Shown: positions 1,023 through 45,963 of the stretch, in pieces
Numbering within the stretch: position 1 is the first letter of the stretch
Layout of the letters: every line of letters starts with the position of its first letter
Source of the DNA: Bilabrum cf. latius
Taxonomy: Eukaryota
Direction: 5' to 3'
DNA: 64,000 nucleotides
NCBI GenBank assembly: GCA_965178125.1
Contig: OZ237757.1
Location: 930,001 to 994,000, forward strand
The notes under the pieces: generated by a model
What the model saw: only the letters and a program-made list of their open reading frames with translations
Told to the model about the DNA's origin: nothing
Database searches by the model: none
Translations under genes and position numbers: made by a program

Positions 1023-3617
1023 ATGTCAGGCAATGGTATATTAGGCTGGGTAGGTCTGGGTGGACCGGATGATGCTGAGCGCGGTAGTCCGGAAGCGCAG
1101 GAGCAAGCAGCCCAAGAGCCTGCCATGAAGCCAGCAGAACCTGTCTTGAGCACTGGGGCTGCGGCGCGATACAGACTTGACATGCCACCGTCATTTTCGG
1201 ACCGTATACGACATAATTCTGCGATAAACGTACGCTAGATACTGAAGAGCAACATACTAAAGCTGAGAGAGGTTGCGTGGGGTAGGCTCCCCGTGAAAGG
1301 AGTAGATAGTCCATCTTTCGTCGTTCGCCGGCTGTAGAATCGTGCCTTGGAAAGAATTATGATATGCCCGGCGTTTGCCGACATACCTGGCTGGAAAGGT
1401 GTCAAACCTAGCGGGGACGCATCGTTCTTTGCCAGCGAAAAACCAGAATGGGCGTGGCTCGCAAAGATGCCGCCAGCTGAAATGTCCATGCAGTCTTTGC
1501 TTGCCATAAAGCTCGATGCAGAGTCTGCCCGTATGCATGGGCTTCATAGCGTCCCTGCATATCAAGCTGCTCCCATGGATGACGCTGCCCCAGGCACAAC
1601 TCCCCAAGGGGAAGAGAGCAAGGAGCCAGCTGGGGAGGATACCGAGCCATCTGACGACCAGGAGCCAAGCGCTGATGGTGCACATGATACCACTAGCGGC
1701 GCAACGCTACTGTCAGCTGCCCCACCCACTCCGAGCGGTAGCAGCAGCAAGAAAGAGAATGATCAGCAGGAACAGGAACAGGTACAGGGCCCTGATGGAG
1801 AGAAAGGCCAGGAACAGGGCCCTGATGGAGAGAAAGGCCACCAAGACGGCACAGAGCCGCCCGCACAGCCCAATCTTCAGGACGCTGCCCATGCCCTGCA
1901 CTCCCTGTGGCGAGGCACGCGGCCGCGGCGGGCGTGGGCAGCCGTGCGAGACGACCTGGAGGGCCTGGTGACTGCCCCCCTCCACGACGTGCTGCTGGGG
2001 GCGAGGCCCGAGGAACAGAGGCAGGACAGGGCAATCGACGGCCGCATTGAGGCACTGCAGCACTTCCTGCAGCCGTGCCACCTGGGCTTGGACGAGGTGG
2101 TAGCCCCTCCTCCTGGCCAGGAGCCGAGCACAAGTGGGGCTGAGGCAGAGGCAGAGGCAGAGGCTCAGAGCGAAGAAGATGATGAGTTGGAGAAGGGAGG
2201 GGGCGGCAGTATGGAGGGCGAGGACGAAGGCAACAGGCAGTCATCTTCATCCTCATCTCCATCCTCATCCTCCTCCTCATCCTCCTCCTCCTCCTGGCAG
2301 CGCTACCTGGAGGAGGAGTGGGGCGCTGCCATGGACGCCATGCACTCGATCGAGAGAGCGAGGGCGCCCAGGGACAAGCTGGCGGCGGTGCAGGCGTGCT
2401 GCCACTGCCTGTGCAGGCTGGTGACCAGGGGGAACAAGGAGAGGAAGAGGAGGAAGAAAGAGAGGAAGGAGAAGGAGGAGGAAGAAGCGCAGCAGCAGCA
2501 GGATGCAAGTGCAGGCGTGGATGGACAACCTGCGGCCGGATCCGACGGCTCTGCAACGGAGGAGGGAGGTGGAGACGGGAGCGAGGTGGTGGCAAGCACC
2601 GCCGACTCTGAAGCGAATGCTAGTGAGCAGTCTGCAGCAGCTGTAGAAACCGAGGTGGAAACTGACTCGGAATCGAAAGAGAACGGCGGCAAAGTTGCCT
2701 GTGCAGCGCCGGGTCGAGAGGGGGACGAGGCACGAGGCAAGGCACCGCTGGTGGGCGCCGAGGCAGCGGCGGCTGCAGCCGAGGTCGGCGAGCTGCTTGC
2801 CTCTGCGGACGAGCTGATCCCCGCCCTGGTGTGGTGCGTGCTGCAGACGAGGCCCAGCCGGCTCGCGAGCCAGCTGCAGTACATGCAGGAGCACAGGCAC
2901 CCAGATGGGCTGAGGGGGGAGCAGGGCTACTACATGACGTGCCTGGCCACCGCGGGTCAGTTCCTGGTGGAGTGCGATGCCTCTCGACTGGAGCACATCT
3001 CGGAGGGTGAGTTCGAGGCTGGGATGGAGGCTGCGGGGGCCAAGCAGGAGGGGCGGTCGGCCGTGGAGGAGGAGCTCTCTAGGCAGATGCAGGGGCTGCT
3101 TGGGAGCATGCAGCCAGGAGAGGCGAGGGTTCCTCGTTATGACCTCTATGAGGACGGTGGAGGTGAGGGCGATGGAGATGCCATCGGTGTCAAAGAGAAA
3201 GAGGCACAGGATGGCATCGGGGGCGAGAAAGAGATTGCCCATGCAGACCGGGGGGGCAGTGTCCCAATGGAGACAGATCCTCAGGCCATCCTCCGATCTA
3301 GCATGGAGGAGGCTGCCAGGGGGGTGGTCAAAGCGGGTCTAGCCCCGGCGCTTGGGGGCGGGGGCAATGCCACCCGGGACTGGCTGCAAAGTCGGTCGCG
3401 GTTCATGAATGTTCCTCCCGGGCAGCTCCGGCTTGGCGAAGTGGAGGCCCTGGTGGTGGAGTACCGGGCACTTGCTGCACTGGTGCAGCGCATGGCGGTT
3501 GGAGCGGGGGTGGGCGCAGGAGGGGCAAGCCAGTTGGCCTCGAGTGGTGCAGGAAAGGGTGTGGAAGAGGACGAGGCACAAGCACCTGGGCATGGGGATG
3601 GGGATGGGGCGCCCTGA
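1023..3617 (+). CDS. VPS9-domain Rab5 guanine nucleotide exchange factor-like protein (~864 aa, 2 in-frame TAG)
   Basis: ORFs 1023-1238 and 1347-3617 share a frame and are separated only by TAGs (1236, 1335). VPS9-like motif ADELIPALVWCVLQ...LASQLQYM...GEQGYYMTCL is present. Ends TGA. Confidence 0.8.
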
Positions 3618-3748
3618 ATGACTGGTGGGGCTGTGTTCTACACAGGGGCATGTACATTGTGATTCTATAAATCCAAGAAATGTTGTTAAAGCACCACCCG
3701 ATCAGTAAATGCATCTGATCACTCGTCACACCGACATTGTCCACAACC

Positions 3749-6700
3749 TTAGCCTCGAATGGCCCCGGCGGCACCACCCCCTCCCCCCACAGTGGGGGTT
3801 CCTCCCCCAGAGGAAAGCGCGCCCTCGCTCTCCTATCTCTTCTGCTCGGCACGCCTCCACTCCCCCACCAGCCCCGACAGCCAGCTCGCTTTATCGGCCT
3901 GCAAATCCGCCGGGGGCCCCGCCTCCACCACGCGCCCCTGGTCCATGACGACCACCGCATCGAAGTCCCCGATGTGCTGCAGGCGGTGGCAGATCGTGAT
4001 CACGGTGGCACCGCCCCGCATCACGGCCTGGTGCACCAAGTCTGCTGACGTGGCATCCGCCGCCGCCGCCGCCTCGTCCAGCAGCAGCACCGGCCTCCTC
4101 CTGACGAGTGCGCGGGCCACCGCCACGAGCTCCCGCTGGCCCGCCGACAGGTGCAGGGCCTTGCGACTGGGGGCTCCTCGCACGGGGGCGTCTGGGCGGG
4201 TGCGGCCTTTTCCACTGGTAGATACGGGTTTGACCACCCCACTTAGACCAGTGGTCACGCGCTATTCCCCAGAGGCATCAATTCCCGTGTCGGAGGCCCT
4301 CTGAGCCCCCCCAATCGAGGGACAGCAAGCTACCACGCAGCACGGGTCACCTCTCTCAGCGGCTGACCGCTGCTTCTTTGCAAACACCTCGGTGAGAGGC
4401 TTGTCCTTGTCCACGGGGAGTCGCAGGGCCCTTTTCTTGCGGTCGTCCGAGGCACCTGCGAGCCCGATGGAAGCAAAGAACCCCACTGCCTCCAGCGCGG
4501 CCAGCCCCAGCTGCAGGAGCGGAGCATCCCCCCTGTCTTCCTCGTAGGTGGGCTCGACCTACGCGGGCAACTTGCCCAGCCCCCGCCTCCTGCGAATCTC
4601 GTTGATCCGATCCTGTGGCCCCATCCCCATCGCCCCCTCCACCACCACGTGCCCCCTCATCGCCCCCTCATACCCTCCCCCCCGCGCCATCTCGTGCCTG
4701 CGAGTCCCCTCCAGTCGGGCGGCCCGAGCGCAACCCTCCGCCAGCAGACGGGGCCCCAGCACGTTCTCCAGGAGAGTCAGACCGGGTGTCACCGCGTCGC
4801 CCTGCACTACCGCAGTGCAATGCCTCTGGATACCCACCCGCCCCAGGTCCCGCACATCCGTGCCGCCCACCCGCACCTGCCCCTGGTGTTCGTATAGGGC
4901 GCACAGGCAGGACGCGAGCGTGCTCTTCCCTGCCCCACTGCGGCCCACCACCGCCACCTTGCACCCCGCTGGGATGGCCAAAGTAACGCCCCTCAGGGCT
5001 AGCACGCCCTGGTCCTCTTCCTAGAGCGACTCATCCATAGGAGAATCGGCAGCTCCCAACAAGGGAGCGGCAGCGCCGGTTAGCTCCTGAGACGATTGCA
5101 AGGCTGTTCCTTTTGCCTGCACGCCTCCGTGCTGTCCAGCCGTTTTCTTCTACTTGCTCTTCTTTTGCTACCCCGCGTCTCGATTGAGCACACCGAGGTC
5201 TCCGCTAAAGGGGCTGTACCGCAGCCAGATACCGTCAAACACCACATCCAGCCCAGCCCCTGCCGCTGGATACAGCGCTCGGAGCCGCCTCGCCCTCCTG
5301 TGTTCATCATCAGCCGCCAATGCCATGCCTACTCCCCCGCGCTGTTCCCCCGCCCCATCCTCGACTCGCACCCCACCGCCGCCGTCTACCACGCTCCTCT
5401 GCTTCACCCACTCGGGGCGGAGCACCACCCGGCGGGGGGCCTGCTGCGCTCCGGCAGGCACTCCTGTCCTAGGGTCCACATTGGGGCGGTTGATCGAGGA
5501 GATCACCCCCGCTGAGGCCAGGTCCTATGCCTCAGTCCAAACCAGCTGAGGATCCACTACGGCAGTGCGGAACTGCTTGCTCTGCAATAGGCCCGGCCTG
5601 CGGGCCTCCTCCACTGGCAGGTCAGCGATGGCCAGCATGCGCTCGGCGGAGACCATGCTCGTCTCCACGGCCGCCCCGTTTCGAGTGAGCCACATGAGCA
5701 CGCCGGGCAGGTTGAGCGCGTAGGTGAGCGAGAAACCGATCGTGCCCGCCACCGCGCTTCCCCTGCGCGCCTCGCCCACAGCCAGCAGGGCAGCGCACAG
5801 CACCAGCGCGCAGCCGAACTGCTCCAGCCAGACGGCCGCCCACTGGTTGACCCACATGCGGGTCAGGTCGGCGCTCATATACAGCTCCGACATGCGCCCG
5901 TGTTCCCTGACGATGAAGGCGCTGGAGGCGGGCCCGTGCGCGCGGATGAGCTGTGCCCCCGAGCACGCCTCTGTGAGGTGGGCCGTCATCGGGGCCCGGG
6001 TGCCCCCTTTGAGGCGCTGCAGGGCTCGGGCCGATACCCTGAGTCTGTCTCCCGCGAGCCAGTAGGGGTACGCCAGCCCCACGATGCCCAAGAGGATCCA
6101 CGGTGAAGTGGTACATATGGCCGCCCCTATGGACACGAGCTGTGTGGCCGAGGAGACTAGGTTGGAGATGGCAGGCCGCAGCTGCACGTCAAGCCCCTGC
6201 TGGTCCTTGATGAGCCGGCTGGCCACTTGGCCCAGGGGGAGTGCATCGAGGATGGAGGCAGGGGCCGCCACCACGGACGCCACGGCCCTGTCGTGGATGG
6301 ACGAGGACGCGGTGAGGCCCCCCATGAGGGTGGCGAAGAGACGGGTGCACAGCAGCACAGTGTCGAGCACGCCCAGTCCGACGAAGATCCAGGCGTACAT
6401 ATCCAGCGTGCCTTTGTCCGCTTGTTCCCCGTGCGATTCCGAGTAGGAGACCCACTTGGACAGCCAGAAGGAGGACCCCACTCCCTGCAGGAAAGGGTTC
6501 AGCACGGACAGAAGGCAGATCAAAAACACGATCGGGGCGGGACCGCAAGAGCAGATGTAGCCCACAACCGTCTTGAGGCTCACCGCCTCGTCCCCTCCCG
6601 CATCGGCATCTGCCGAGTCCATCAGCTCCTCCATTTGCTCCGCAATGTCTTCCGCGTCAGCATCGAGGTAGGCAGCCCCCACCTCGCTGTTCCCCAGAAT

Positions 6701-9298
6701 TGACAAGTCGGCGAGCTTTGGCGGGGCCTGCGCTGGTGCTACTGCAGCTGCCTATCCGGCACCATCCTTGCCTACCTTTCCGGACGAGGGGTCCTCTAGC
6801 ATGGACACCAGGTCTGTTGGTGGGGCGGCCTTTCCTTCCTTGGAGCCAGCACTATCCTACCTCCCATGCTCAGGCCCGCGCCCAGATGCCTGTCCCTCAG
6901 CTAGCTCGCCGGCATATGTTTCTTTCCCCTCCTCCTCCTCCTTTCTAATTTCTTTCCTTCTAGTGCGCCATGCCCGCGCCCTGTCGACCCCATCCATCAC
7001 CCCGCCCTCCTCCATGACAAAGTGCCCGGCCAGCACCGGCTGCACCTCCCTCGCCTGCAGCACTGTCTAGGGATCGCCCGTGGTCAGCAGCACGGCAGCA
7101 CCCCTAGAGGCCAGGTCCATGATCGCCCCTCGCAGCAGAGCCTGCCTCGTGATGGCGTCGCACGCAGTCAAAGGGTCGTCCAGCAGCACCAAGTGACCCT
7201 CCAGCTACCGAGAGACTGGCGCGCTGGTGTCTGCCCGCGCCCAGCAGTGGCACAGCGTGCGAGCCAAAGCCAGTCGGGCCCGCTGCCCCCCTGATAAGTT
7301 AGACCCCCTGTCCCCAATGGCCGAGTCCAAGCCCTTGGGCAATGCCCTGATGTCTTCCGCCAGGCAGCAGAGCTCCAGGGCCCGCCAGACCATGGCCCGA
7401 GGGAGGAGGCACGCTTCGGTGGTGAACCTCACATTCCGCAGGATGGACCGCCGCATGATCCAGGGGGACTGCTGCATCACGGCACGAACGCGCGCGCGCA
7501 CGATGGCAGTGCCCCCTGTGCACTGGAGGGAGCCCATGGCAGCAGAGACCAGGGCGGACTTGCCCGAGCCTATGCGGCCAGAGACCACGGTGAGCCCGGC
7601 TCGGGCCTGCATAGTCACGGACCGCAGCACCTCCCGCCCTCCAGATGTGCGCTCCCGACCCTTGATTGGGCCCTTGCTTGGGCCCTTCCCGTTGCCATTT
7701 GCGTTGCTCGCGCCTTTCGGTCCGGTGCTACGGGCGTCAAATGAGGCAGCCGCCAGCTCCAGAGCCACGTCGTTCTGCTAGGCAGGCTCATAGCCGGGCG
7801 CACCTGTCCGTGTCTCCCCCTCTTTGCTGTCATCTTTGATCCCACCCATGGCCTACACGTACGCCTGGATGCGATCGACGGATACCTTGAAGGCCAGGAT
7901 GTTCTGAATGCCTTTGGGCGACATGTTGAGTGGCTGCTTCACGCGGCTGAGCCATGACATGGCCGTGAACACCACGCTGGCCCGCAGCACGTTGTGCCCC
8001 AGCAGAGCGTAGGATGCGATGGACGCAGAGATCAGAGCCACCGACCCGAACATGGTCAGCGTGCGGGAGGCCACGAAGAGCATCATCCAAGAGGTCAGCG
8101 GGGCCTCCTCCATGGCCCTCGCGGAGAGCAAGCCTGACAGGAACCTGCCGTCCAACGAGGCAGACTGGTCACCCAGCACGTCGCCCGGGCCCCAGGACCA
8201 CGGAGAGGAGAATGGTAGACCAGGTGCCCAGTCGAGGCCGCCCCAGACCCCTGTTTTAGACCCCGCGTGGCGAGTGCCCCGCCCGACTCCCGCTCCTGCC
8301 GCCGCTGCCGCTGCCGCTGCCGCTGCAGGGTCCCTGGGGATGAGCATGTCAAGGGCACCTGCTGCCCTGAAGGAGCGCCAGTTGGTCAGGACGGCTGTCG
8401 TGAAAGCGGAGCGGGCGTCCCGCTCGGCCTGCAGGGCCTTGACCTGTCGCACGGAGCACTGCAGCAGCCAGGCTGCCAGCGGGGCCACCAGGATGACCAT
8501 GCCGATGCCGAGCAAAGAGGGCCAGCCCAGCAGCCGGTAGCAGTTGTACAGCGAGAACGACACATCGAGAAGATTGCACCAAGTCGACCAATGCACCATT
8601 GCGATGATGTATTGGTCAGACACTTTCGTGCAGTCAGAAGTCAGCAATGTCACTGGGTCCAGTGTCAGTGGGTCCGCCAACGGTGGTGCCTTCGCGGACG
8701 TGCTGCCGGCATGGCCCTCCTCCGCAGTTGCTGCGCGCCGATTCGACTACTAGTCATATCGCTACCGAATCGAGTCGTTTCCGAGCGAGGCTTTTAGGAC
8801 GGCGTGCTGCAGCTGCATTTGCATGTGTTTTCCAGCTCTCTCCCCGAAGGTCCAGAAATGATGAGCCAAGAGGCTTTGCAAGCTTGACCCCAGCCAAAGC
8901 GACACTGCCATCGCCCACATTTCTCCGACTGACAATTCCCGTGTGCCTTCAATGGACTCCAATAGTATTTCAAGCACGAAAGGGATGCACCATGAAACGC
9001 CAAGCCATAGCAAGCACAGCAGCCCAGATACCGATATGTTGAACCAGTGTAGCTAAAATAACAAAGCAAATAGACTGTCCTCGTTGCTGAGCGTCCTGAC
9101 TCTCTCTTCGAAGGAGCTTCGGAGGCCGGCAGCGCTGTCATGTTCTGAGTGGCTTGGCAGGTCCCGCGCTCGGAGACCTCCACGAGAGTAGGCCGGTGAA
9201 ATGACATGGTTCCATACCCATATATAAAAAATCTGAGACAAGCAAGATGCTTCGTCTTCGGGGGCCGACATTAGCCCAACGTTCTTGCAGTTCAACAT
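3749..9298 (-). CDS. ABCC/MRP-type full ABC transporter (~1850 aa, ~17 in-frame TAG)
   Basis: Ten track ORFs (9053, 8762, 7853, 7205, 6857, 5525, 5168, 4559, 4262, 3833) lie in one frame, joined only by TAG. N-terminal PEDEASCLSQIFYIW. NBD1: GRIGSGKS, LSGGQRARLALAR, LLDDP. NBD2: GRSGAGKS, LSAGQRE, LLLDEA, ICHRL. Ends TAA. Start codon uncertain (9298 or 9271). Confidence 0.85.
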
Positions 9299-9477
9299 CG
9301 GACAGCCCCGAGGATTTGTACTCCCGGTTTCTTCTTGGATCGGATCAAGGGCACAATCGGCAACCAGCGCCGCAACGTGGCGAGATCCTGCAGTGACGGC
9401 CTTTCGCCGCGAAAGGAGGGCAGAGCGCAGGAGTCCTTTGCTCTGCGAAGACAAAAGCAAATCACGTCATGCCGCAT

Positions 9478-10707: not shown

Positions 10708-13700
10708 TCACTGCCTCATGACCCCTGCCTGGGCCTCCTCCACTAGCGGGTGCGTTGTGTCAGCGCTCCCCAGAAGGCCCATCCTCTCCACTAAGTCCAG
10801 CACAGTCGCTTCCACGTGCAGCTCCAGGCCAACCGAGGCACTCGCGTCTGAATGCAAGCCAGCGTCTACACCAAGCCCGCCGAGACCATCTTCTCCGCCC
10901 TCTTCCTCACCAATACCCCCAGCGAGGCCCACAGCTCCCCCCTCCTCCTCCTCCTACTCCCCACCGCCACCCCCACCCACCCTCAGCAGAAGGAGGAAGA
11001 CCCTCCCCTCCCCCATTCCCTCCCCCATTCCTGCAGAGCCGCCCACACCCGCACCCGCACCCGCCAGCCCCCACACCACAGGAGAAGCCCCCCCTCTCCC
11101 GGCCCTCTCTCCAGCGGCGCCTTCCTCGGCACCCACAGACACAGGGACCCGGATAGACGCGATCGCGAGGCTGAGGTCGGCCCTGAACCGGACCCTCCCG
11201 CTCCTGAGATTAGCCACCAGAGCCTCGGGGGCTCCTTCTAGGGCCGCGGCCAGCTTCTCCACACCCGATGGGCCCGCCGGACCTGGGGTGGGGGGTGAGG
11301 GTAGTGACGACGACGGCATGGACTCTCCTTGCCCACGCTGCCCGGTGGAAGCACTCTAAGGCAAGACGGTGCCGGTGCCCATGGGCACCAGCATGTGAGA
11401 GGCAGGGGCCATGCCGGGGAGGGCGGCAGGCAGCGGCAGCTGGGAGCGGAGTGCCTTGGCCAGCAAGTGCAGCACCACCCCCAGCTGCAGGCTGAACTCC
11501 ACCCGCTCCGCCCTCACCCTGGCCCGCACACCCTCCCCCATGGTGGCCTCCAGACGGGGGTCCAGCACCTCCTACCCCCCGTCCAGCCGCAGCAGCCCCA
11601 GCAGCGTCTTCATTGCAGGGGGTAGCCCGCGCATGGGCTCGCCCGGCTACCCAGGCCCCAGCCGCGCCCGCAGCAGCAGCGGTTCCCTTCCGCTCGCGTT
11701 GGACGAGTAGGAGCTCCCACCGGCCCGCCGCAGCCGAGCACCACCTCTGCCCCTGCCGCTGCCACTGCCACCACCACTGCTGCTGCTAGTGCTGCTGGTG
11801 CCTCCATGAGTTTGCCCGCGGGCATCGCGGACGGCCCGATCCACTGCGGCCTTGATCCGGTCCTACAGAGGCTCTCCCCCGTCTGCTACCCCACCCGTCG
11901 TCCCCTTGCCCTTGTCCAACTCGGCCAGCACGGCCTGACTCACCGCATCCACGAGCTGGCTGGCCTCCCGCTCCTCTGATCCCCCTGCATGCCCGTCTTC
12001 GTCTCCCGGCCCCGTGCTCTGCACGAGGTGAACGTCCACAGCAAAGATGCGCAGCAGCATGGCAGTTGCGAGCCACATCTCCGGCATGGCGTCCGCTGCC
12101 CGCCTCGCCCGCAGTGTCCTCGTGAGGGCCTCCAGCGGGCCCGCGGGACCCCCGCCCCTTTCCCCACTGGCCAAAGCGGCGCCCAGTGCATCGGCCCAGT
12201 CCGCGTACAGAGGAGTCTCGCATCTTGCCGCGGGACTCGCCGCGAACCGGGCCAGCCGCACCTCCTCCAGCGCCCCTGCAGCCTCGGCGGCTCGTATGCG
12301 GCCAGTCGATGCCGCCACGCTCGACATGCGGCCCCGCCCCACTGCCCCCTGCAAGCCGGCAGTGCCCAGCTCGGCAGAATCAGCCTCGTCCTCCCCCAGC
12401 CCGCTATCCCTCATGGCTCGCAGCTGCTGCTCGCCGCCCGTGTAGGACCGTGCGTTTCGTTCCGCCTCTGCCAGCGCCCCGTGCGCCGCCCTGACCCACT
12501 CCTACCTCAGCTCGTTGGTCATGGGTGCCTCTGCCCTCACTTCGAAGAAGGAAGACGCAGCCGTGCGGGCCCCGGAGGCACCGTGCCAGGGCCAGGGCGG
12601 CCTCCCGTCCACCGAACCGGACATGGAGGAGCCCAGAGAGCTGGGCCCGCTGCTGCCACCCTCCCCCTTACGGTCCATCCCAGTCTCCCTTGACTGCCAC
12701 ACCGAGGCCCGGCGGCCCATCCGCCCAGCGGCCATGTCACCGAGGGAGGCACCCTTCGAGTCCCAGCAGTCGCTCGGGATGGGAAGCAGGTGGAAGGACG
12801 TGCCTGCGGGCAGGGCGGCCAGCACCCCTTCATCCACCTCGCTGGCAGACGCGTCCTCCCTCCCGTGTGACATGTCCAGCCCTTTGAGGCCCGGGGGCAT
12901 CGAGCCGCTGCTCATCTGACGGCGGGTCTGATCTGCATCTGCGGTGCCCCTATCCTGGCGATCCAGGAGAGACTGGGCAGGCATAGGGCGCCCCTTCTGC
13001 TTCACCTCCCCGTTCTCGTCCTCTTCCTCTTCCGAGTCCCTCGACAGCTGCCTCTGCCGCTCCTCCTGAAGGGCGGACTGAAGGGCGGGCCGCAGGGCCA
13101 GCTGCCTCCGGCGAAGCTCCTCTGCCCAGCGGCCACCGTGCACCCTCCGGAGCCGGAACAGCAGCCGCGGAAGGTTGCCCAGCTGTGAGGGCAGCGGCAG
13201 CGGGGGCAGCACCACACCGCTGGCGCTCTCCACCGCCACGCCCCGCACCCAGCCCAGCACCCGCGCCCCCTGGCCCCCGTGGAAGCCCAGCCCGATGCGG
13301 CGCACAGAGGCCGATTGCACCACACCGTGCGCGATCTCTATCCCGGTGCGCGCCACGTGCATGGCCTGACCCACCACCGCCGCGAGCGCAGCCGTGTTCC
13401 GGGCACTGATCCCGGCAGCGCCCCCCGGTCTGGATGCAGATCCAGCGGGGCTTCCCTGTGCCGCGCCGGTGCGACGCTGCTGCAGAAGGGCCGCGCTGGA
13501 AGCAACCCGCGGTAGGTGTCTCGAGCTCCCGCCGATGCGCAGCGGCGTGCCCCCACGCCTGGCAATTAGAGCCCGTGGCCCAGTGGTGGTGAGGGAGGAC
13601 GAGGGGCTGGATCCGGGGGCCACAGGCGGTTTGCGGCTCGCCGGATTGCTCATGCTATTGCTGGTCCCTGGACTAGCATCAGTGGAGGATGGCCCTCCAT

Positions 13701-16700: not shown

Positions 16701-17496
16701 CCTCGCCTGCCTGCCAGTGTGCAGCCCCAGTGGCACTGCCACTGGCACGGCTCTGGCTCGAGGGACTGCCAGTGGAGGTAGCTGGGCTCAAGGGAGGCCG
16801 AGCACCGGCAACGGCGGGCGGGCGGGCGCCCGCTGTCGCTGCTGAAGCACGGGCTGTCCCTGCGCTGTCCCGGTGCGCGGGTCCTCTGAGGAAGAGCGGT
16901 CGCAGGGACACGTCGAGCTTGCCGTGCACGTGCTCCACCCAGAGCATCCTTGCTCCGATGAATGCGTTGCCACCGCCCACCGCGACCCGAAACCCTTTGA
17001 TCCGCGGCAGGAACTGTCTGCACCTATGTGCATCTATTGTTCGTCGTAGGCGGCCAAGGAGCGCCTCCGTGGAAGCGATCTATCTCCACAACCGACGCAT
17101 TGTGTTGTCGGCCGGATCCATCTCCCGCAGGCCGGCCGCGTCGCCCGGCACGTCCCCGTTCGCCGCACCTGCGTGAGCTTGCTCGCTTTCACGAATCTGT
17201 TTAAGCTATGACAATGCCTCTTCGCGGCGTTCCTACAGTCGCGAAATTGTCTGCTGCGCTTGCTAAACAAGCTTGATGTCGTCAACCCGTGACGAGCTCC
17301 TCCAATGATCTGCCGCCCTCTTCATACTAAAATCAATGTATTCTTCAATTGCCTTGATCTCCTTTCGGGCAGAGGCCAGCATTCGATTTTCAACACGTAC
17401 GATAGCCGCCCGAGAGCCCGGCCAACGCACCCGATCTAGTCGGCTAGCATACGGCCCAATGGACTGTTGACTTCCCTATGTGCTAGATTCTGCCAT
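10708..17496 (-). CDS. very large hypothetical low-complexity protein (~2260 aa)
   Basis: One frame runs from ATG 17496 to TGA 10708, interrupted only by TAGs. It joins track ORFs 12502, 11863, 11647, 11356, 10954 and 10708. Confidence 0.6.
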
Positions 17497-33461: not shown

Positions 33462-33603
33462 CGCCGGTCAATAGAGTGAGTTATGCTGTGTTGCCACTTG
33501 GCCCGACCTCTCTAACAGTACCGTGTTAATTAAATCAAACCGGATTTCATCCGGAGTTGCACCGTCATCCGCTGTCTGTGTGGCTCAGTTTTCCCGCACA
33601 GAC

Positions 33604-34800: not shown

Positions 34801-34976
34801 GGTGGCTGCTGATAAGAGCGTCTTAAGCTTTACAGCTACGGCCAGGGAAATTTAGGGCCGAGCACTGGCAGTGTCGCAGTCCGGGTGGGCCATGTCGGCC
34901 ACGATGTGATGAGCGCAGTCGAGTGTAGACAGTTATGATGTGCATTTGCCGTGTTTGCAACCAGATTCAACCGACC

Positions 34977-37066
34977 ATGCCCCGAAAAGGCAAAACCAAA
35001 GGTGGTGCACAATCTAAGAAGGCGTAGTAGCGCGCCTAGAGAAAAGCGTAGCGACTTCTGAAACAACGACAAGCCAAAGCAGGCGAGGAACCAACGCAAG
35101 ACTAGGCATCCTTTGACCCTAGAGAGCAGCCCGCAACTGGAGATTAGGATGATCTTGGTCATGAACAACATTTCAAACTCTCCTCCACTGATGAGCGAGG
35201 GGTGGACAGCGAATTGGCAGCTCAGGAATAGAAGACTGCGGGTGCTACTGGCACAGAAGATGTGTCTGACGGCGATGAAAGCGGCACGGATGATGACTCT
35301 AAGTACAGTGATAGCGAAGATAGTACTATGAGTGATGAAAGCGATGGAGATGGTCCGCCTCGGGTGGGAACTTGGGCTACCGGTGGCAGTGGGGGAAGGG
35401 GCGGCTAGGCTTCAGAGCAGCAACGGGATCGGGAAATTCGCCTATTTATGTTTGATTTTGGCCACTGTGACCCCAGACGCTGCTCTGCTCACAAGATGCG
35501 ACGCCTTGGATTCATCCGCACTCTCAAGCCAAAGGACCGCTTCTAGGGGATCGTCTTGTCCCCCACTGGAAAGTACGCTGTCTCGAGAGATGACCGGGAG
35601 CAGATCGCCAAGCATGGAATTGCCGTGGTGGACTGCAGCTGGAACAAAACGGACGGTGTTCCGTTCAAGCGCATCGCCGGGACCTCCCGTCTGCTCCCGT
35701 TCATGGTCGCTGCCAACACGATCAACTACGGCAAGCCCATGAAGCTCAAGTGAGGCGTCAGCCAACGACCCGATGGCACTCTTCCAAACCTAACGTTGCA
35801 CTGTCTGCTCGCCGTACGCGCAAATGCTCGCATCATATTGCGTCTCTCTGTTTCCCAAGCTGCAATCCCCCGTCCCGCAGCTGCGTAGAGGCAGTCGCGG
35901 CTGGCCTGGCCGTTTGCGGCTGGCACCGCGAGGCGGCGACTCTGTTGGACCCTTTCTCCTACGGGCCCACCTTCTTGAAACTGAATGCAGACACTCTGCA
36001 GAGGTACTCGGAGTGCAGAGATGCTCGGGAGGTGTTTTTCGCGCAGGCAGAGCTGCTCCACGAGGCTCGCGAGCGGTCTGCCTCGCGCGGGGTGCGCAGC
36101 TCGGCAGCTCTGGCGGAGGGAGCCGGCCGCATGCTGCTGCCCAGCGACAGCATCGGGGAAGAAAGCAGTCAAGCAGGTGCGTCGAGCGGGGCGGCTGGTG
36201 CATCGAGTGGGGCAGGTGCCGACCATGCAGGCGGTGCAGTCGCTGACGAGGACGCCGACTTCGAGGCTGACGAGGCCGCGGGGATGCACGTCGATACAAC
36301 TGGACGGGAGGACGTCACCATCGATGCAGTAGCTGGGGCAGGCCGCGATGATGCCGCAGGGACCTCGCTAGCTGATCCAGTGGACGGTGCGCAGGGGCGA
36401 CCAGCAACGGGCGCTGCATCAGCCCTGACGGCTGAGGGGCTGTCTGCTTGGCACGTGGACGACAGTCGAGCCGAGAAGTTGATCGCAGCAGCGTGGCGCA
36501 ATAGCGGGGACCACCGGCCGGGCGATGGCAGCGCTGATCCTGGATCAGGGCACAGCGCATCACCCCAGACAGGGGCACCACCTGCAGCCCCTAGCCCTGG
36601 CGAGGATACCAGGCAGGCGGCTGGCTCCTATGCGGCCAGCCCTGGTGATGGCCACAAGCCGAGGACTGCACCACCTGCGGCTGCCCCCGTTGACCCCGTC
36701 ATCGCCCCCGCCCCGGTGGGTGCTTTCGCTCTGCAAGTAGCGGAAGCAGGAGCGACTCGCGGAGCATCTACTGGAGCAGCGTCGTCTTGTGACGGGGTAG
36801 AGGAGTCGGCAGCTCTAGACGAGTTCGGAAGAGCACCAAGCGATGCAGAGGGTGCAGCGGCAGAGGCCGAGGGTTCGGCTCTCGGCACCCAGCTAGACCT
36901 CAGTCGATTCGCGGGCATGGCCGGGGCTGCAGCAGGTGGTACTGGCTCGGAAGAAGACGATAGTGGGAGTGACGGGAGTGACCTGGGAGAATCCGATGAC
37001 GAGGAGGAAGCAGGAGTCGCGGGCGAGGGTCTGCGCATGATGGATGAGGCCATATCAGAGGACTAA
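34977..37066 (+). CDS. TSR3: 18S rRNA aminocarboxypropyltransferase Tsr3; intron 35750-35880
   Basis: Motifs [66 protein letters not shown]. About 9 in-frame TAGs in exon 1. Ends TAA. Confidence 0.88.
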
Positions 37067-37122: not shown

Positions 37123-39606
37123 TCACGATTGAGCCTTGCTGGCCCATGCAGACCCACACGACTGGTCCAGCTGATCCAGCAGGTCGTCCTCGGGCACATC
37201 GAGTGGAACGGCGCGGGAGGCCCACGGTAGCAGCGTGTGCGCCATCCTTGGGTGTGCCATGAGTTCCTCGTGGTTCTCCGGGCATACCACCTGCATGACT
37301 CCCTTGGAGGTGCGCACCCGCATCGATGGAGCAACTTGGGTCTGCAGCAGTCTGGCAGTCACAGATGGTGCTGCAGCAGAGTTCTCATCCTCACGTGACT
37401 AATCCGCGTCACCTTGCTCCCCAGGTGCAGTCTGCTGCTGCATGGAGGTCCACAACGAGTCGAGCCACTCGCGCGCCTGCCCACCGCTGCGAAGGGCGGC
37501 CGGTGTCTGTGCTTGCTGCCTCAGGCGCTCGTGCTCGTCGAGTCCATGCCCGGACACAGCCAAGTGCTCCCTGGCGTGCCTCTCCAGCTAGCTGAGCATG
37601 AAGGTGAGCCTCGTGTGGGAGACCCTGCCCTTGGCCCCGAAGCCTTGGCCGGCTGGCAGCTCAGATGCGCCGGGGCTGCTAAACTCCTCAAAGGCCCACG
37701 CCCCCGTGGCCACCACCGGCAGAGCGTCCAGCAGCACCTGCTCCGATGCCCCTGCCAACGACTCGCTCCCGATCGACGCGATGGCCGCAGCAGCCAGACT
37801 ATGATACGAGGTTTCAAGCCGGTCAGCCCCTCGAGTCCAAGCCAGCGCGATCGGCAGCGGGGGCAGGGCTGACGACGCTGCATTCTGGTCTGATCCACCC
37901 GCGATAGGCGCAACTGCCTGTCCACGAGGCAGGGTGCTGCTGGGATTGCGTCGCAGCAGATCCATTGCTGCTTGCTGCGCGGCCTGGTGCTCCCCACCGT
38001 TGTTGGCCGCACTCGGCACCTCTCCCTGCTCATGCGCGGCCCATGCACCCAGCGCCGCGATCTGGTCGTGCCTTACTGGGAGCAGGAGCACGCCGGCCGA
38101 GACGGGCTGTACTAGCTTCCTCGCGAATGACCTCACGTATCCCGTAGCTGGGATGACCTGGGATGCCGCCAAGGAAGCCGCGTGCAAGCACTGCAGCGCT
38201 GAGACATTCACCCCAGGACCCGCTTGCACGCCGCGACACCCTCGCGCCTCCTCTGCAAAGCGGGCTTCCACGAGTGACCGTGCCTCGAACAGGCTGTGCT
38301 CCATTGGCATGACGTCCTGGGTGGACAGAGCCAGCACCAGACTTCCTTGGGGCTGTCCTTGGGCGGGGTCCGCCTTTGATGGCTTGTCCCGCTTGCACTC
38401 CTGCAGCAGCTGGGCAAGCGGGCCGGGCGCGTGTTCATAGGACCGCTGTACCCAATCAGACCTTTGTCCAGCTGCGGCTGGACCCTGGCTTGAGTGTGCG
38501 AGCACAGCCGTGCTGAATCGGTGCACAGCTCTTGCTACCTCTGGAGAGCGCAGCGGCAGGTGCTGCGCGACTGGGTCACGCCCCGGGTCTGTGCCCTCGA
38601 CTGCTGCCGGTGCAGTTGCACCATCATCAGGGTGGGGCTCCAGCACCAAAATGTGGTCCACACGGGCCGCGCGATGCTGTGGGCTACCAGCCTCCAGCAT
38701 GCGGCTGCCCGGACTGGGACGCTGCGCTGTTGTGCGCTGCACGTGTGACTGCAGATGCCCTTTCGAATCTCCTTCAGATGTCTACCCGTGCGTTGATTGC
38801 GTCTCTATCCACCACGCCCTGGCATCCCCCGCCTGCATGCTCGCCTCATGCGCCCTCGCCTGCGCCGCAGTCCACTGGTAGGCCGATAGCTCAGCCAGCT
38901 GTAGACGGAGCAGCGCAAAATCGTCAAGCGGGTCACCAGATGCCATTATCACGCTTATCAGTTTAGAGGGTGAGCTCGAGCACCAGCTGCCTGGCTGTCT
39001 CCAGTCCCGGTGCAGCCGTCCATGCTGCAGCTCGCCTGGTCGTCGCTCGGTTCCTGCAGAGCTCGCCAAAAGGGTCGGCCCGTGGTGCATCGAGACTAGC
39101 ACTCCCGAGTGGATCTCATGAGCAACTAGCAGAACCATTAGAATAAATCCTAACCCTACTATGACCCTTACGTACGAAGACATCACATAATTGCAGTACC
39201 ATGACCAGAAGTTCGGAGCTTGCTCTTCATCCGCTTCCGATCGCGACAGGCATCCACACCGTCGCCCAGCGCGGGCACATCCGGTCTTACAATCGTGATG
39301 CCATCCGGATAAACTGAATATCCCACCAACGTTCTTGGCTGCTCTTCTTGGCTTCCTTTTCTTTCCTGTGGCTGCTGTCTACCTTGACGTTCGGCGTGTG
39401 GCAGTAGTCTTTGCGGTTGCGTGTGAGCTGCTGCTGGCTAATGGCTGTCTCCTTGCACTCTCCATCAATACCCGGTGCGGAATGCCCCGGGAACCTCCTT
39501 GCTGCGGAGTGTTGGCACGTCTAGCTTGAGGACGAATCGGTCTATTTGTAGGGACCGCTGCATACTCGGATATGCGAGGAAACTCGATTTCCTCCAACTC
39601 GTTCAT
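37123..39606 (-). CDS. hypothetical single-TM protein (~827 aa)
   Basis: ORFs 39379, 38782, 37588 and 37123 share a frame joined by TAG. One hydrophobic segment (VIVGLGFILMVLLVA). Ends TGA. Confidence 0.55.
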
Positions 39607-39793
39607 GATGCTATGAATAACTAGTGATGACCTCAACCCGCGCGGCGCGATATTCACTGCCCCCCTGTGCCACACAGTGTGCGAGAAGAACTTCTTGAAG
39701 ATTGGCGCTGCAAAGCCGGAACCATGCAACTTGAGGTGGTTCGTGGCGACGATCGGCCATTTTGCTGCTGCTCATAAAAACTAACGAAATAAA

Positions 39794-42253
39794 ATGGAAG
39801 GGTTTATGAGCTCTTTGCAGTCCATTGGTGGCCGAATCGCTGCCCAAGTGTCGGACGCTGTGAATGCAGTCGACTTGGATGGTGTCAGGCGAACCCTCGC
39901 AGACGGCGGAGCGAGCCTCCTTCAGGATGACAAAGATGCAGAAGCCTAGCTACTTGATGATATGAATGTAACATACATCACGCCTCGTGTAATCGCTATG
40001 GGATTTCCATCTACTGCAAGAACAAGACTGCGATCGTCGACAAACGGCAGCTCTGTTGGTAGGATTCTGTCGCGGAGGCACGGTGGGCACTACATGGTTT
40101 GGAACTTATCTGAAGAATCGTACGATGCATCTGTATTCGAGGACAGCGTGATAGAGCACAAGTTTCCGGGATTTCCTGCGCCTCCCCTTGGGCTACTGTA
40201 CCAACTATGCAAACAAATTGAGAACTGGCTGCATGCCGCCCCTGAAAACGTGGCCGTTGTGCATTGCATGACGGGAAGGGGACGTACGGCCTTAACCATA
40301 GCGTGTTCCCTGTCTTGGATGCGAGGCGGTCCGCAGGACGAAGCGGTGGCCGCTGGCAGCCAGTCCAGTGCGCATAGGGGCGTGGTGGTTCCCGCCGACT
40401 CACCTCTGCTTGCCCTGCAGGCTGTGTGCGAGCGGAGGGGGTCGACCTTGGATCGATTGACTCTGCCGTCCCAGCGCAGATACGCTGCCTACTTCGGATG
40501 CGTGCTGGAGGGGCAGCAGCCAGTGCAGGGCACGAGGCGCCTGGAGAGGGTGCTGCTGCACGGGCTGCCCGACCTGACCCTGTCCAAGGAATAGGCCCGA
40601 CTGGGAGGGAAGGAGCTGGGTCTACTAAAAGATATGACTGTTACTAGTTCCAGTGCTGCTGCTCCGCTGAGGCTGGTGCTAGAGTTGTTTCGGGCTGGAA
40701 GCAGCAGGCCGGTGTGGCGATCTTGGCCAGTGACAAAGAAGCAAGACGGAGAAGCGGGGGCGAGCGCTGAGGCTCTTAGCAGTGATTAGCAGAGTGCTCT
40801 GCCGGCAATGGTCAGTCGCAGCGATGGTGTGTGGAAACTGGAGCCGAAGGTGCCTCTGCGAGGAGACCTTCTGCTTCGGGTGAGGCAGCTGGCGGTCCGG
40901 CCGAGAGAGGGGGGCGGCGAGGACGGGGGTGCAGAGAGAGAAGGCGGCTCTGCGTCTCACGAGCGCAGACAAGTCGTCACGCGGGAAACATTGTGTCGAG
41001 CTTCGTTCAACGTAGGCATGGTTGGCGGGGTGAGGGTGCCCGGTGGTGCTGCTGGTGATGGGGATGGGGCGGACGACGGGGGCATCGCTGCGCAGAGCTG
41101 TGTCCTTCGGCTGAGCAAGAGGCAGCTGGATGTGGCATGCGGGGATCCAAGGTGCGAGGATGACATGTATCTGGAGCTGATCTTCGGGCCTGTGCAGCAG
41201 ATGGTGGAGGGAAAGGAGAAGGGGTAGGGGCGGGGGCAGGCCGCCTCAGCGGCTGCAACCGGTGCATCGGTGGCACGGGAGAGCAAGCGCTCTGATTCGG
41301 ACCACGGGACCGCGGTGCGGGCTGATGACGCTGTGCTGCAGCCCTCATCCCCGGTGTGGGCAGAGGTGTCTAGGCGAAAGGCCCAGCGGGAAGCCCGTCG
41401 AAAGAAGGCCCGGGCAAGGTTGGAGGCACGCAAGAGTGCCAAGGCGGCGTGGCACAAGGCACAGCAGCAGCAGCAGCAGCCATCGGACGGGGCGGCGCGG
41501 GGTTCCGGCGAGCGCGAAGTTGGGGTAGGTATCGCGATTGGCGATGACGATGACGACGAAGATGACGATGTGTCTTTGGAACGCGCTTCGGCTGGAACCC
41601 AGTCGCCGCACTCCCGCGAGCCCGTGGAAACAAAGAGTCTTCAGCAGGAGCTGGACGAGCTGGAGGCCCTCGAGAGGGAGCTGGGTATCGGGGTGGACGC
41701 GCCCGATGTGGCGGTGGAGGATGAGCTGGGCCAGTCCGTGGGACAAGAGGACGGTTTGGTGGCCACCGGCTAGGGGGGTCATACGGTTGCTGCTGATCAT
41801 GCTGGTGCTGGTGCTGGTGCTGATCATGCTGGTGCTGGTGCTGGTGCTGATCATGCTGGTGCTGGTGCTGGTGCTGGTGCTGGTGCTGGTGCTGGTGCTG
41901 CAGGGGGCCACATCCCGGAAGTAAGTCCTCTTACGGCAGTAGTTGGCGAAGCTGAAGTTGAATCTGAGCACGGCAGCACCGCTACAGCAGCTGCGGCTCC
42001 AGCAGCAAACCAAGCAGCTGCTGGCAGTGGGCCGAGCACAGAGCAGGAGCGAGACAGCAGTGAGGGCGAGTCAGGTGCACATTTACCGATCAAGCCATCC
42101 ATACCGGAATATCTAGGCGAGGTAGATGGGACTAGTGTAGCTGAAGGCGCGGCGCAAGGCGATGCGACGCACGGTGGTGGCAATACCAGCGGCGGCGATG
42201 GTGAGGACGAGCTGGCCGAGATCGAGGCATTCCTTGACGACATAGAGGGCTGA
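39794..42253 (+). CDS. PTEN/tensin-type phosphatase with C2 domain and acidic tail
   Basis: Motifs TYITPRVIAMGFP, VWNLSEESYD, VVHCMTGRGRT, PSQRRYAAYF and C2-like LRGDLLLRV...LCRASFNVG. Five TAGs join the fragments. Ends TGA. Confidence 0.85.
41788..41900. repeat. (GCTGGT)n repeat with GATCAT interruptions, encoding an Ala-Gly tract in the PTEN-like tail
   Basis: Directly visible. Confidence 0.8.
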
Positions 42254-42938
42254 CATGGGGAGCAGACTGTAACGAACGTGCATGTCGTGGAAGTGCATCC
42301 GGATGCAAGGCCTGTTGCGGCGATTCTGGTTTGCCTTGATGGTGGACTGGCGTCCAGTTCAATTTGTCGGTGGATTCAGGTACAAGACGGTGCTCGTGGG
42401 CGCTGCAGCCACAGGAACGGCCGCTGGACTGCTTCCGACTGGGTTCACGACCTTAGTGCTCTGCTTGTCAGTGTCCGCGTCCCGCCTCGCCGCTGCCGTG
42501 GCCTCGCACGGTGACTTCTCGTACTCGTCCAGGGTGCCCGGGCAGCAGAGCAGCCGCCCTGCGAACAGTGCACCCCCTGTCAGAGCAGACGTTATGCCGT
42601 ACGACCGTGCTAGAGAGATTGCAATCGCCTTGAGCATATCGTACTCGTCATACCCTTCACCCAGGCCGTGTAACAGGCCATGGACTGCAACGAAGACGGT
42701 GCTGTCACTGTCGCGGATACTGCAACAGCAACGAGCGTTATTATCTACTTCAATACTGTGGTATGACCTTGTTTTGCGCCAACCGATAGGTTGACAATAT
42801 CTCCCCCGCCCAACGAACAAATTTTGTGCCATTTTGCGACCACTGGCGGCCAGTGCCACACGGTGTGGCGAACCAAACGGAACCGAAGCCGGCACCCAAT
42901 CGTCTCTCAATCCTATATCTGGCCAAGGCGAGCAAACC

Positions 42939-44471
42939 ATGAGAAAGGAAGAGGCATCGGTCGCATATTTTATATTTGTAGTGTTCTCCGTGCAAGTTTT
43001 GGCTTCGCAACCGTCTGCACGCCAGCTTGCAACGAACTTATTCGGGCAAACTGCTCCAACGCATATTGTAAACCAAGGGGAAGGGCAGCTAGGCCAGGTT
43101 CCTATTTGGCATGTCTCATCCAAGAACACCAGTGTCAGCTTTGCACTCTGCATTACAGGGGAGGCTGATGTTCCTATCGAAGTCAAAGACGACGCGCTTC
43201 GTGAGAAAATAGAAAAGCACAACAGCCACGTAGCGACGCGGCAAGCATGGAAGTCATTCTCATTTTGGGCAGTTGATCCGATAGCTGCAACTGATCTCCA
43301 TACTCGACACGAACCATTTCTCGATGATGTTCAGTTCGCTGGTACTGGGGCGCGGTGCGTGTACGGCAACCAGATTCAGCCGGACGAGCGATTTACCAAC
43401 GGAGAAATGCACTTGGCCTTTCGATGCGACAAATCTCGAAACGGCGATCTAAGTCCCGAGTTAGGTTGCGACTTTGCGTTTGCCTCAGTAGAGCACCACG
43501 AAAGCGACGTAGTGGCCAGTGGTGCGCTTGAGCTCGCCAAAGGCAAGCTTCTGGTTTCACTCGCCTCCAAGGACGGCCCAAATGCCAAAAGTCTGGAAAA
43601 GGTCATGATCAATAGTGTAGCAGAAGACCTAAGCAGCGTTGAGGACCAGGGGTAGCTCAAGCGACATCCTGAAGTACTTCACAAAGCACTCGAGTCCGGC
43701 AGCACACTCCGCTTAGAGACTTATGCCGGCATGTGCAACCAATTGCGCACTATCCTGTCGTTTGCAAAGTGGGCCAAGGAGCACGGCAAGAAACTAGAGG
43801 TATACTGGACGCGCTCTGCACACTGCCCCACGGACATTGAAGGTCTCCTCCAGCAGCCAGACCCTGGCCTATGGAACGTCACCCTGCACGACAAGAAGGA
43901 CCTTCCAAAAGGAGCGAAGATCGACGTCAAGACAATCTACACAGTATTCGACCGCGGATATGACTTCTTCCCGGAGCCGTTCGGGTTGCTCCGGCCGGCC
44001 CCACGAGTTATCGAGTTCGTGCGCGGTACTCTGCAGCAGATGCAGAAGGATGGAAATGAGCGCTTCCTCGCGATCCACGTGCGACGCACTGACCTGCCAA
44101 ACAAGCTGTACACCAAGGAGGAAGAGTACTTGAAGTGGATCAAGAGGCGGGACCCAGCAGGCTAGCTGAAGGTGCACATCGCCACAGACAACCAAAAGAC
44201 GCAGAAATTCTTCCGCGACAGATTAGGCGCCAGGGCCTTCGTGCTGGAAGATATCAAGAACAAGCCCAGCGGGCGGCACACGTCAGTCGACCACGCGATC
44301 GGGGACATATTCGTGGCTGCCATGTCCTTTGACTTCATGGGCACTACGGGAAGCTCCTTTTCGAGGATGATCATGGGGCTGCGGCAGCACCGGACGAGCA
44401 CCATGAGGACGCTGGAATTTGCAGAATGGGATACTGTCGTGCTGGATGCAGACTCGCGCTTTGATCGGTGA
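42939..44471 (+). CDS. GT-B fucosyltransferase-like glycosyltransferase
   Basis: N-terminal hydrophobic anchor, AGMCNQL, FLAIHVRRTD, VHIATDN, DIFVAAMSFDFMGTTGSSFS. TAGs at 43653 and 44163. Ends TGA. Confidence 0.75.
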
Positions 44472-44901
44472 TCTGGTGAATAAGAACCTTCAAGACTTAG
44501 TGCTCATTCATCAACGCTTGAGCGCTCACGCGCATGCCACGCCATCACTATTTCCTACCAGTCCGAAATGACATGCACACTCAAACAAAATCCTACCGTT
44601 CACGACTATAAGTAGCACCCTGCCACCTGTACTGGCAGCCAGAACCAGCTACTGTCCTAAGTCCGCTGCGGGGAGTTAAAACAGTGTTGGGCACATGTCA
44701 GCCTCATTATCATGGAGTGCCCAGTCCAGCAAGGAGGCTCGTAGGCCAAGTCTACGGGAGGGTGTTATTTATCTTCTTCTTGAGAGTTCAACAGGTCGCA
44801 ACCTTTGCCTACCCGATACATAGATAGATAAACGATGGGGTTTCTTGATCTGAGAACAACACAAAGACAAAATTGTCTGTTAGACTGAAAAGGCTACTGC
44901 G

Positions 44902-45963
44902 ATGCTTATATTGTTGCTGGGATCGATTCAGCACCAATGTGGAGGTGGGATTTTGTCAAGGCTACTCTTGCTGCAAACTCACCAAGCTACCGGGGCTGTC
45001 GCAGTGTGTATTGCGGTGATTCTTACTCTTTGGTGGCAAGCGTACATGCTTGCTCGCCCAGAGTGCTCGCATCATGATGAGAATCATGCTCATTTGGCGT
45101 AGTCCATCCACTGGCATGCAACGAGCTACCGCCTCAAAACGCCATGCGTCGACGAGAGCCCTGCTCCATGGAACATGATATTGTTCCATATAGTATCATT
45201 GTGCGTTGTTTGTTTGGGGGCTGCAGGGGCAGGGCTGATTTTATTGTCTGGAGTGCTTGATCCGGGAATCGTTGAGGGTGCTATTGAAGGTCGACACATT
45301 GAACCTTCGATCCCAGCCATGCCTACAAGTGAATCCATGCCATTCTCCTCACGGGCGTTGAAGTCATTGCCGCGAAGCAAAGCTATAGATATTTAGAGGT
45401 GCCTCTCGAGTGCATGGAGCGACCAGTCGGGTGCGTCACAATCTGCGGACGCTGTTAGGCAGACTTTTCCGGCTGTGCATGATACAGAAGATGCCCAATG
45501 CTCCCACCAGGGCCCTGTCAAATCCAATGAAGCTTTTGAATCTCGCCGCAAGCTCGCAATGCAGCTGGACTGGGGCAAGGTTCCGTACAACGTGCCTGAG
45601 GCACTCCGCGGCCTCGTGCTGTTCGACCCGTCTCGCCCTGACGTGCTCTTAATCGGGGAATACAAGTTCTGCCGTACCTGCCGCATCTGGAGACCACCGA
45701 GAGCCGCGCACGACACCGGGCTTGATGTGTGCGTGCTTCAGCACGACCACTACTGCACGCTCATTGGCAACTCAGTCGGCCTGTACAACCACCCGATCTT
45801 CGCCGCTGCTGCCGTGTGCTCAACCGCCGGTACTGGTATCGGGGCTGTCCTAATTATCTTGCAAGCAGTATATAGCGCGATGGCCGCAGTGCGAGTCGCA
45901 GGCGGGCCGTCTTTGCTGATGAGTCCTTCCTTGCTGATGTCCCCCCGCTACGGTAATAAATAA
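44902..45963 (+). CDS. DHHC (DHYC variant) palmitoyltransferase, 3'-truncated by the virophage insertion
   Basis: Motif KFCRTCRIWRPPRAAH...CVLQHDHYCTLIGNSVGLYNHPIF. Two TAGs upstream. The frame runs into AT-rich DNA and stops after TM3. Confidence 0.8.

Follow-up and report, generated by a model that had tools for sequence, protein, structure and literature searches.

Glutamine as the probable meaning of TAG, with TAA and TGA as the only stops, in a GC-rich protist locus and the virophage-like element beside it

Does the codon TAG still end proteins in the organism to which positions 930,001 to 994,000 of contig OZ237757.1 belong, and, if it does not, which amino acid does it encode? This 64-kb stretch, which we call the window throughout, falls into two parts of different composition, with a GC content of 0.53-0.72 at 1-46 kb and of about 0.30 at 46-64 kb, the second part being occupied by what is, judged by its sequence, a virophage- or polinton-like element. 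Read with the standard code, the GC-rich part breaks up into a patchwork of short open reading frames (ORFs). Once TAG is read through, it holds 13 long ORFs, eight of them with eukaryotic Pfam domains. We conclude that these 46 kb are very probably protist nuclear DNA in which UAG means glutamine and proteins end only at UAA and UGA, which is the assignment of NCBI translation table 15; under this table every ORF of the window is translated without an internal stop.

The Pfam matches above cut-off are VPS9, ABC_membrane with ABC_tran, the N- and C-terminal GH3 domains with an Fn3-like domain, HSP70, ELO, Fer4_RLI with Ribo_biogen_C (TSR3) and DHHC, with PTEN_C2 and O-FucT falling below it, and both the domains and the homologues extend on either side of in-frame TAG codons. 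Counted from the first ATG, the 13 host genes comprise 12,626 codons, among which we found 67 in-frame TAG and not a single TAA or TGA, whereas the five alternative frames of this DNA contain on average 70.8 TAG, 26.0 TAA and 155.0 TGA per frame. TAG accounts for 28% of these off-frame stops, and at that share the probability that all 67 internal stops are TAG is vanishingly small (log10 P about -37). The near equality of the in-frame and off-frame TAG numbers indicates that TAG is not avoided in the genes; TAA and TGA are excluded from them. All of the 14 ORFs examined, one of which is doubtful, close with TGA (9) or TAA (5), and none closes with TAG. The original prediction, made from the sequence of this stretch, had held that the host nuclear genome uses TAG as a sense codon and keeps TAA and TGA as stops, and these figures bear it out, with TAA and TGA as the sole terminators in all genes of the GC-rich part. 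It had listed TAA ends at 3749, 22235, 29087 and 37066 beside ends in TGA; all four were found (the last two codons at 29085-29087 and 37064-37066), together with a further TAA at 45961-45963. Where it spoke of at least 14 host genes split only by TAG, 13 genes stand, and the fourteenth ORF has no family match. For the ABCC-type ABC transporter it gave ten fragments, a figure to be replaced by 18 pieces separated by 17 TAG, but it rightly placed the Walker B motif of the first nucleotide-binding domain (NBD1) beyond a TAG, since the TAG at 7205-7207 separates Walker A (GRIGSGKS) from Walker B (LVLLDDP).

The assignment to glutamine goes beyond the original prediction and is supported by a comparison with orthologues of a related organism and with homologues of the viral genes. 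A metagenome scan with the GH3 alignment found two related contigs, L001 (4.8 kb) and L002 (1.9 kb), which are 99.9% identical to each other and show only 2 differences, one of them a CAG/TAG difference inside GH3. These contigs carry an orthologue of the GH3 glycosidase gene at 69% identity and, upstream of it and in divergent orientation, the counterpart of the large gene for which no family is known (57.5% over ~600 N-terminal residues), in the same order as in the window. Fifteen aligned TAG sites are not shared between the species, and at 7 of them the other species has CAG or CAA; the remaining eight are opposite E (twice), K (twice), T (twice), S and R, and a gap is aligned to one more TAG. 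With Gln codons making up 3.8% of the host codons, in genes with a GC content at third codon positions (GC3) of 0.73, 7 of 15 would arise by chance with P < 1e-6. At one of the Gln-facing sites, window position 19864, a TAG of the window is opposite CAA in L001/L002; at five others the relative has TAG opposite CAG in the window (GH3 residues 50 and 119, and window positions 17014, 16426 and 15919); and at GH3 residue 221 the window and L001 have CAG and L002 has TAG. This last difference, which separates two near-identical contigs, fits a synonymous change. The second TAG of the GH3 gene, at 20443, is opposite GAG in L001. At two further sites, both in the large gene (17233 and 17080), TAG is common to both species, which implies that the trait is older than their split, and the fact that orthologues only 57-69% identical display the same trait indicates that it is old and clade-wide. 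In these alignments the code of the related organism is clearly that of the window.

Glutamine is also the residue favoured in the viral comparison. A HMMER search with the primase-helicase of the element listed 150 homologues, the best of them 50% identical over the full length. At the TAG of residue 578 glutamine is found in 146 of 146 of these homologues, at residue 441 in 81 of 149, the 4 closest listed among them, and at residue 575 in these 4. Summed over 19 viral TAG columns, the log-odds amount to +13.9 bits for Q, against -3.5 for K, which is next best, and -5.7 for E; in a control of this procedure the right residue was recovered in 19 of 19 amino-acid classes. We also fetched 32 related loci from IMG/VR, of which 30 matched, and among these relatives glutamine is present at residues 578 (16/16) and 441 (11/16). 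The aligned segments of the 30 matching loci contain no in-frame stop, nor do the 150 homologues listed, which were called under the standard code, and we infer a standard code for the relatives and a different one for this element. Unlike those loci and homologues, the element has in-frame TAG in every ORF examined. The seven of its ORFs that were tallied (3,196 codons) contain 55 TAG in frame and neither TAA nor TGA, compared with totals of 279 TAG, 770 TAA and 363 TGA over the five other frames, and all seven are terminated by TAA or TGA. Glutamine in the viral proteins would thus be written as 55 TAG, 55 CAA and 11 CAG (TAG = 45%), and its content would be 3.8% counting TAG, compared with 2.07% from CAA and CAG alone.

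The same counts bear on the codons that remain stops. If TAA were also glutamine, and stood to TAG as CAA stands to CAG, the host genes should contain about 14 in-frame TAA and the viral ones about 275 (the latter calculated as 55 TAG x 55/11), and since none is observed we conclude that TAA is not a sense codon. The TGA of the GH3 gene stands at the same end position as in its relatives, the TAA of the viral primase-helicase is within 7 residues of the end of the closest listed homologue, and the Hsp110 transcript ends downstream of its TGA.

To positions 27,001-47,000, a range outside of which the ABCC gene and the large gene lie, we aligned the contigs of four runs (X1, X6, X7 and X8). A joint of 32246 with 32386 occurs in all three of the runs X6-X8, and joints of 32904 with 33355 and of 35749 with 35881 occur in two of the three each; all have GT..AG ends in the orientation of the gene concerned, and none is present in X1. 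They delimit introns of 131-450 nt, two in the Hsp110 gene (32247-32385 and 32905-33354) and one in the TSR3 gene (35750-35880). Because of these GT..AG joints we infer that the X6-X8 contigs are transcript-derived, X6 having been graded only 'RNA? (probably DNA)' by a program guess and a search for sequencing runs having listed none that is on record as RNA. A poly-T loose end of X6 at 29706, 53 nt beyond the TGA of Hsp110, marks a 3' end, and the relative P0389 aligns unbroken through the join of exons 2 and 3 of this gene; with its three exons joined, 1,037 codons are open from the ATG at 33461, beginning with a typical Hsp110 N-terminus. The spliced contigs cover 14 TAG codons and show 0 differences from the window, and the eight X6 pieces used, spliced and unspliced, keep 21. 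In the genes covered, the TAGs are therefore neither spliced out nor edited, which is the opposite of the outcome that the original prediction had named as speaking against it. Its description of Hsp110 and TSR3 as split only by TAG needs amending: both genes do contain TAG in frame, but the three introns interrupt them as well.

Several further observations, together with the grading of X6, weigh against reading TAG as glutamine. The ORFs are delimited by TAA and TGA, and so the in-frame stop counts are partly circular; the extents of the ORFs are backed independently of these two codons by Pfam domains and full-length homologues. In the primase-helicase, two TAG sites are most often opposite D among the homologues listed, namely residue 381 (70/148 and all 4 closest) and residue 229 (73/144). 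There is no tRNA gene within the 64-kb window, and the number of Rfam matches is 0. For the host genes, all 17 TAG sites of ABCC fall in unconserved columns of the phmmer alignments and are uninformative, as is the TSR3 site, which is opposite K or S in a column likewise unconserved. The Hsp110 site at 33411-33413 is opposite V in HSP105 and Sse1 and opposite I in one Hsp70, and of the 120 homologues aligned at GH3 19864, 119 have a residue at the site, which is S in 109 of them and A in 6, although the closest relatives, unlike these distant homologues, carry CAA. Elsewhere, the residues are mixed: the Hsp110 site at 32772 is opposite S, Q or K, GH3 20443 is opposite D/E, and PDB alignments give mixed residues at TAG sites of GH3, TSR3 and two Hsp110 sites. 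Since some TAG codons are thus opposite E, K, D, S/A or V, these sites are the ones that would favour a meaning such as Glu, Lys, Ser or Ala, or an ambiguous decoding. Where Q is exchanged in proteins, it is usually for E, K, R, S or T. Only Gln, however, is enriched in the host pairs and in the viral columns, where all other amino acids score -3.5 bits or less, and the CAG/TAG difference between L001 and L002 is compatible with a synonymous change, so that we regard a different amino acid as very unlikely.

A less remote alternative, although still an unlikely one, is that TAG has two meanings, standing for glutamine within genes and for a stop near some 3' ends, for which Condylostoma, the karyorelict ciliates and, with UAA, Blastocrithidia may be compared. 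The sample of 14 ORFs leaves room for this, and in ABCC the last TAG precedes the TAA by 28 codons, with a tail of low-complexity sequence behind it; but nothing in the window demands a second meaning, as none of the 14 ORFs needs a TAG terminator, the TGA of GH3 and the TAA of the viral primase-helicase stand where their homologues end, and TAG is no rarer in frame than the off-frame counts would have it. That the code is the standard one, with the genes being pseudogenes or the TAGs being sequencing or assembly errors, is scarcely credible. We found no point that supports it, the decay of pseudogenes would yield TGA and TAA as well, contigs of independent runs show the same TAGs with 0 differences, and two TAG positions are kept in a species at 57.5% identity. 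That splicing or RNA editing eliminates the TAGs ahead of translation is, for the genes covered, just as hard to believe, because, for all that Hsp110 and TSR3 have genuine introns, nothing but the three GT..AG introns is missing from the spliced contigs, which retain their TAGs, and the TAGs are in frame with flanks that align to homologues free of gaps. Glutamine for TAG, with TAA and TGA as stops, is thus the reading that we retain for both parts of the window, whose features are listed in Table 1.

Table 1. Host genes of the GC-rich part and features of the AT-rich element, in window coordinates.
Feature	Coordinates	Strand	In-frame TAG	Terminator	Remarks
VPS9-domain gene	1023..3617	+	2 (1236, 1335)	TGA	
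ABCC-type ABC transporter	3749..9466	-	17	TAA	1,849 codons from ATG at 9298
Doubtful ORF	9478-10260				no family match; fourteenth ORF examined
Large gene, no known family	10708..17505	-	11	TGA	2,262 codons
GH3 glycosidase	19396..22008	+	2 (19864, 20443)	TGA	relatives also end there
Membrane-protein-like gene, no known family	22235..26932	-	5	TAA	
Gene, no known family	27420..29087	+	4	TAA	3 TAG within an X6 contig, 0 differences
Hsp110 gene	29759..33467	-	33411-33413, 32772-32774	TGA	exons 33467-33355, 32904-32386, 32246-29759
ELO fatty-acid elongase	33346..34800	+	34624 (inside Pfam match), 33472	TGA	
TSR3 gene	34827..37066	+	9 after ATG	TAA	two exons (to 35749, from 35881); all 9 TAG in spliced X6 contig
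Gene, no known family	37123..39771	-	4	TGA	
PTEN-like phosphatase gene	39785..42253	+	5	TGA	Pfam matches below cut-off (PTEN_C2 weak)
O-fucosyltransferase-like gene	42795..44471	+	2	TGA	below Pfam cut-off
DHHC palmitoyltransferase gene	44854..45963	+	2 after ATG	TAA	terminator at border of AT-rich element
AT-rich virophage/polinton-like element	45964..64000				continues past window end
Primase-helicase ORF	48409-51198	+			Pfam Prim-Pol and PriCT_2 at 48418-51195
DUF5872 match	52180-52911				Pfam
V20-like capsid protein ORF	57451-59430	-			PF22031 MCP_V20_C at 57454-59340, E 0.0037, 17.2 bits vs cut-off 27, weak
Sputnik V18/19-like penton ORF	59412-60377	-			PF21507 at 59415-60377, 29.1 bits vs cut-off 27

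The host genes give a few leads on the lineage and history of the organism. Among named protists the matches of ABCC are mostly to stramenopiles, a weak lead on lineage. The best match of Hsp110 reaches 64% identity in BLASTP (70% in another alignment) and the remaining matches 41% or less; the clusters retrieved are generic Hsp70 clusters, and the one name among them is that of a partial entry, 'Symbiodinium sp. KB8', in a distant cluster. No misbinned relatives were found when contigs of prokaryote genomes were scanned. Beyond its own small clade (56-70% identity), the nearest homologues of the GH3 protein are bacterial (about 30%), which suggests, as far as sequence similarity can tell, an old bacterial origin of this gene. 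Both L001 and L002 shift frame at L001 3117-3234, likely an intron, and the GH3 gene of the window is continuous there.

In the Hsp110 gene, at about 30780-31070, a hexapeptide (EGEAAK) is repeated in ~11 copies, and the short-read contigs of all four runs break there. The TAG of the ELO gene at 33472 was counted, as it follows the first ATG of the frame (33394), but it overlaps exon 1 of Hsp110 and is perhaps upstream of the true start. Over 43457-43919 of the O-fucosyltransferase-like gene, runs X1 and X8 each have a second contig of 463 nt with 42 differences, which is a paralogue or a diverged allele. Of the 133 positions of the DHHC profile, the Pfam match of this gene reaches position 73 and breaks off just where the AT-rich element starts, and this means either that the element was inserted into the gene or that an intron follows.

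The host/element junction near 45,970 is bridged by no contig piece among those listed (X1 and X6-X8), so that for the integration the evidence is the assembly alone. The contigs break at repeats that recur within the element. In the part of the element inside the window, which includes one of its ends, the repeats detected are internal only. One repeat of ~170-220 nt is present at 46117-46302, 48091-48281 and 55690-55913 and, inverted, at 60546-60705, upstream of several element ORFs and each time in the orientation of the ORF, so that it looks like a shared promoter or leader; at 46167, run X1 has loose ends whose sequence corresponds to another copy of it. Between viral ORFs, at 56909-57088, lies a tandem array of ~9 copies of a 20-nt unit. 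Neither by peptide patterns in IMG/VR nor among the related loci fetched was a relative of the V20-like capsid protein found. Two further ORFs, 62084-63181 and 61500-62072, considered as candidates for a packaging ATPase and a maturation protease, have no Pfam match, and their tblastn matches, all weak, are to related viral loci (2 and 4). A Walker A motif (GKSGSGKS) was recognised by eye. For the ORF at 53079-54608 the label 'PolB' was rejected, as there is no Pfam match; motifs seen by eye (YDINSHYP, KEILNSLWG, IHTDS) appear to resemble those of protein-primed family B polymerases.

The element has probably evolved for long in hosts of this code, and in a standard-code host its TAG codons would be expected to truncate its proteins. 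Endogenous virophages are exemplified by the mavirus-like elements of Cafeteria. AT-rich elements of this kind, endogenous virophages or polinton-like viruses, are described from GC-rich protist hosts (PMC12220804), and the element of the window resembles them in lying, AT-rich, beside GC-rich genes and in its Sputnik-type penton, its weak match to a V20-type capsid protein and its Prim-Pol primase-helicase. Among bacterial viruses, 'code 15' phages read TAG as Gln and keep TAA and TGA as stops (PMC9523058); their code is unlike that of their bacterial hosts, whereas here the element and the adjoining eukaryotic genes share one code. According to a 2026 catalogue of giant viruses, all confirmed isolates come from standard-code hosts and one metagenomic genome fits code 6 (PMC13524828). 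Our search of the full-text literature found no report of a variant code in a virophage or polinton-like virus and, beyond the cases named below, no GC-rich non-ciliate with UAG as Gln. A Codetta run on cryptophyte assemblies, with results in Supplementary Table S2, may bear on the question (PMC12220804). Two other papers were set aside as parallels, one concerning a plastid and not a nuclear code (PMC12480563) and the other dealing with Crassvirales (PMC11502894).

The code itself, with UAG as Gln and UAA and UGA as stops, is already known, and the co-adapted virus-like element is the notable addition. In the nuclear code of Iotanema spirale UAG is Gln and UAA and UGA are stops, and a tRNA-Gln (CUA) and an altered eRF1 have been proposed to account for it (PMC5304391). 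If the model for I. spirale applies here, a tRNA-Gln with anticodon CUA would pair with UAG and not with UAA, and an eRF1 would have lost its recognition of UAG or have it weakened; eRF1 is absent among the genes recognised in the 64-kb window. The two cases are alike in that UAG alone is reassigned, and to glutamine, and they differ in that our evidence consists of genomic DNA and a comparison of orthologues and that for I. spirale of a transcriptome. The host here is GC-rich, and it may still be akin to Iotanema or even identical with it. The same variant, UAG as Gln with UAA as a stop, is found in the ciliate Protocruzia tuzeti and in two phyllopharyngean ciliate lineages, with several independent origins (PMC11687900). 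The other UAG-only reassignments, in the rhizarian exLh (Leu) and the green alga Scotinosphaera (Ser), likewise uncouple UAG from UAA but to the benefit of another amino acid (PMC5304391; PMC11687900), and in our data Leu and Ser are far below Gln.

Protein matches also bear on the ciliates, as the best ones are environmental and not ciliate. The macronuclear DNA of ciliates is as a rule rich in AT, and its introns are tiny. Unlike it, the window has 53-72% GC in its host part and introns of 131-450 nt and belongs to a contig of at least 64 kb, and on this general knowledge the GC content and the introns appear unlike ciliate DNA. That the host acquired its code independently of the known cases, as the original prediction had suggested it may have done, is likely. 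We tentatively put forward, as a possibility somewhat short of probable, that the window represents a new GC-rich protist clade with at least two members, whose orthologues are only 57-69% identical, which gained UAG as Gln independently of Iotanema and the ciliates, and that the virophage-like element is fully adapted to this code.

Reassignment of UAG without UAA is known from only a handful of nuclear lineages (PMC11687900), and every new UAG-only case tests the idea that UAG and UAA are coupled through eRF1. The present case offers genomic DNA together with transcript contigs, and, from metagenomes, a second and divergent member of the clade in which TAG positions are conserved. Standard gene callers shred the genes of such an organism and of its mobile elements, and annotation must therefore use table 15. 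With a virus-like element in the same code, the co-evolution of host and virus codes is open to direct study, and, if the tentative view of the clade and its element is true, this would be the first eukaryotic DNA virus physically linked to a host whose stop-codon reassignment it shares, and the code would act as a barrier of host range.

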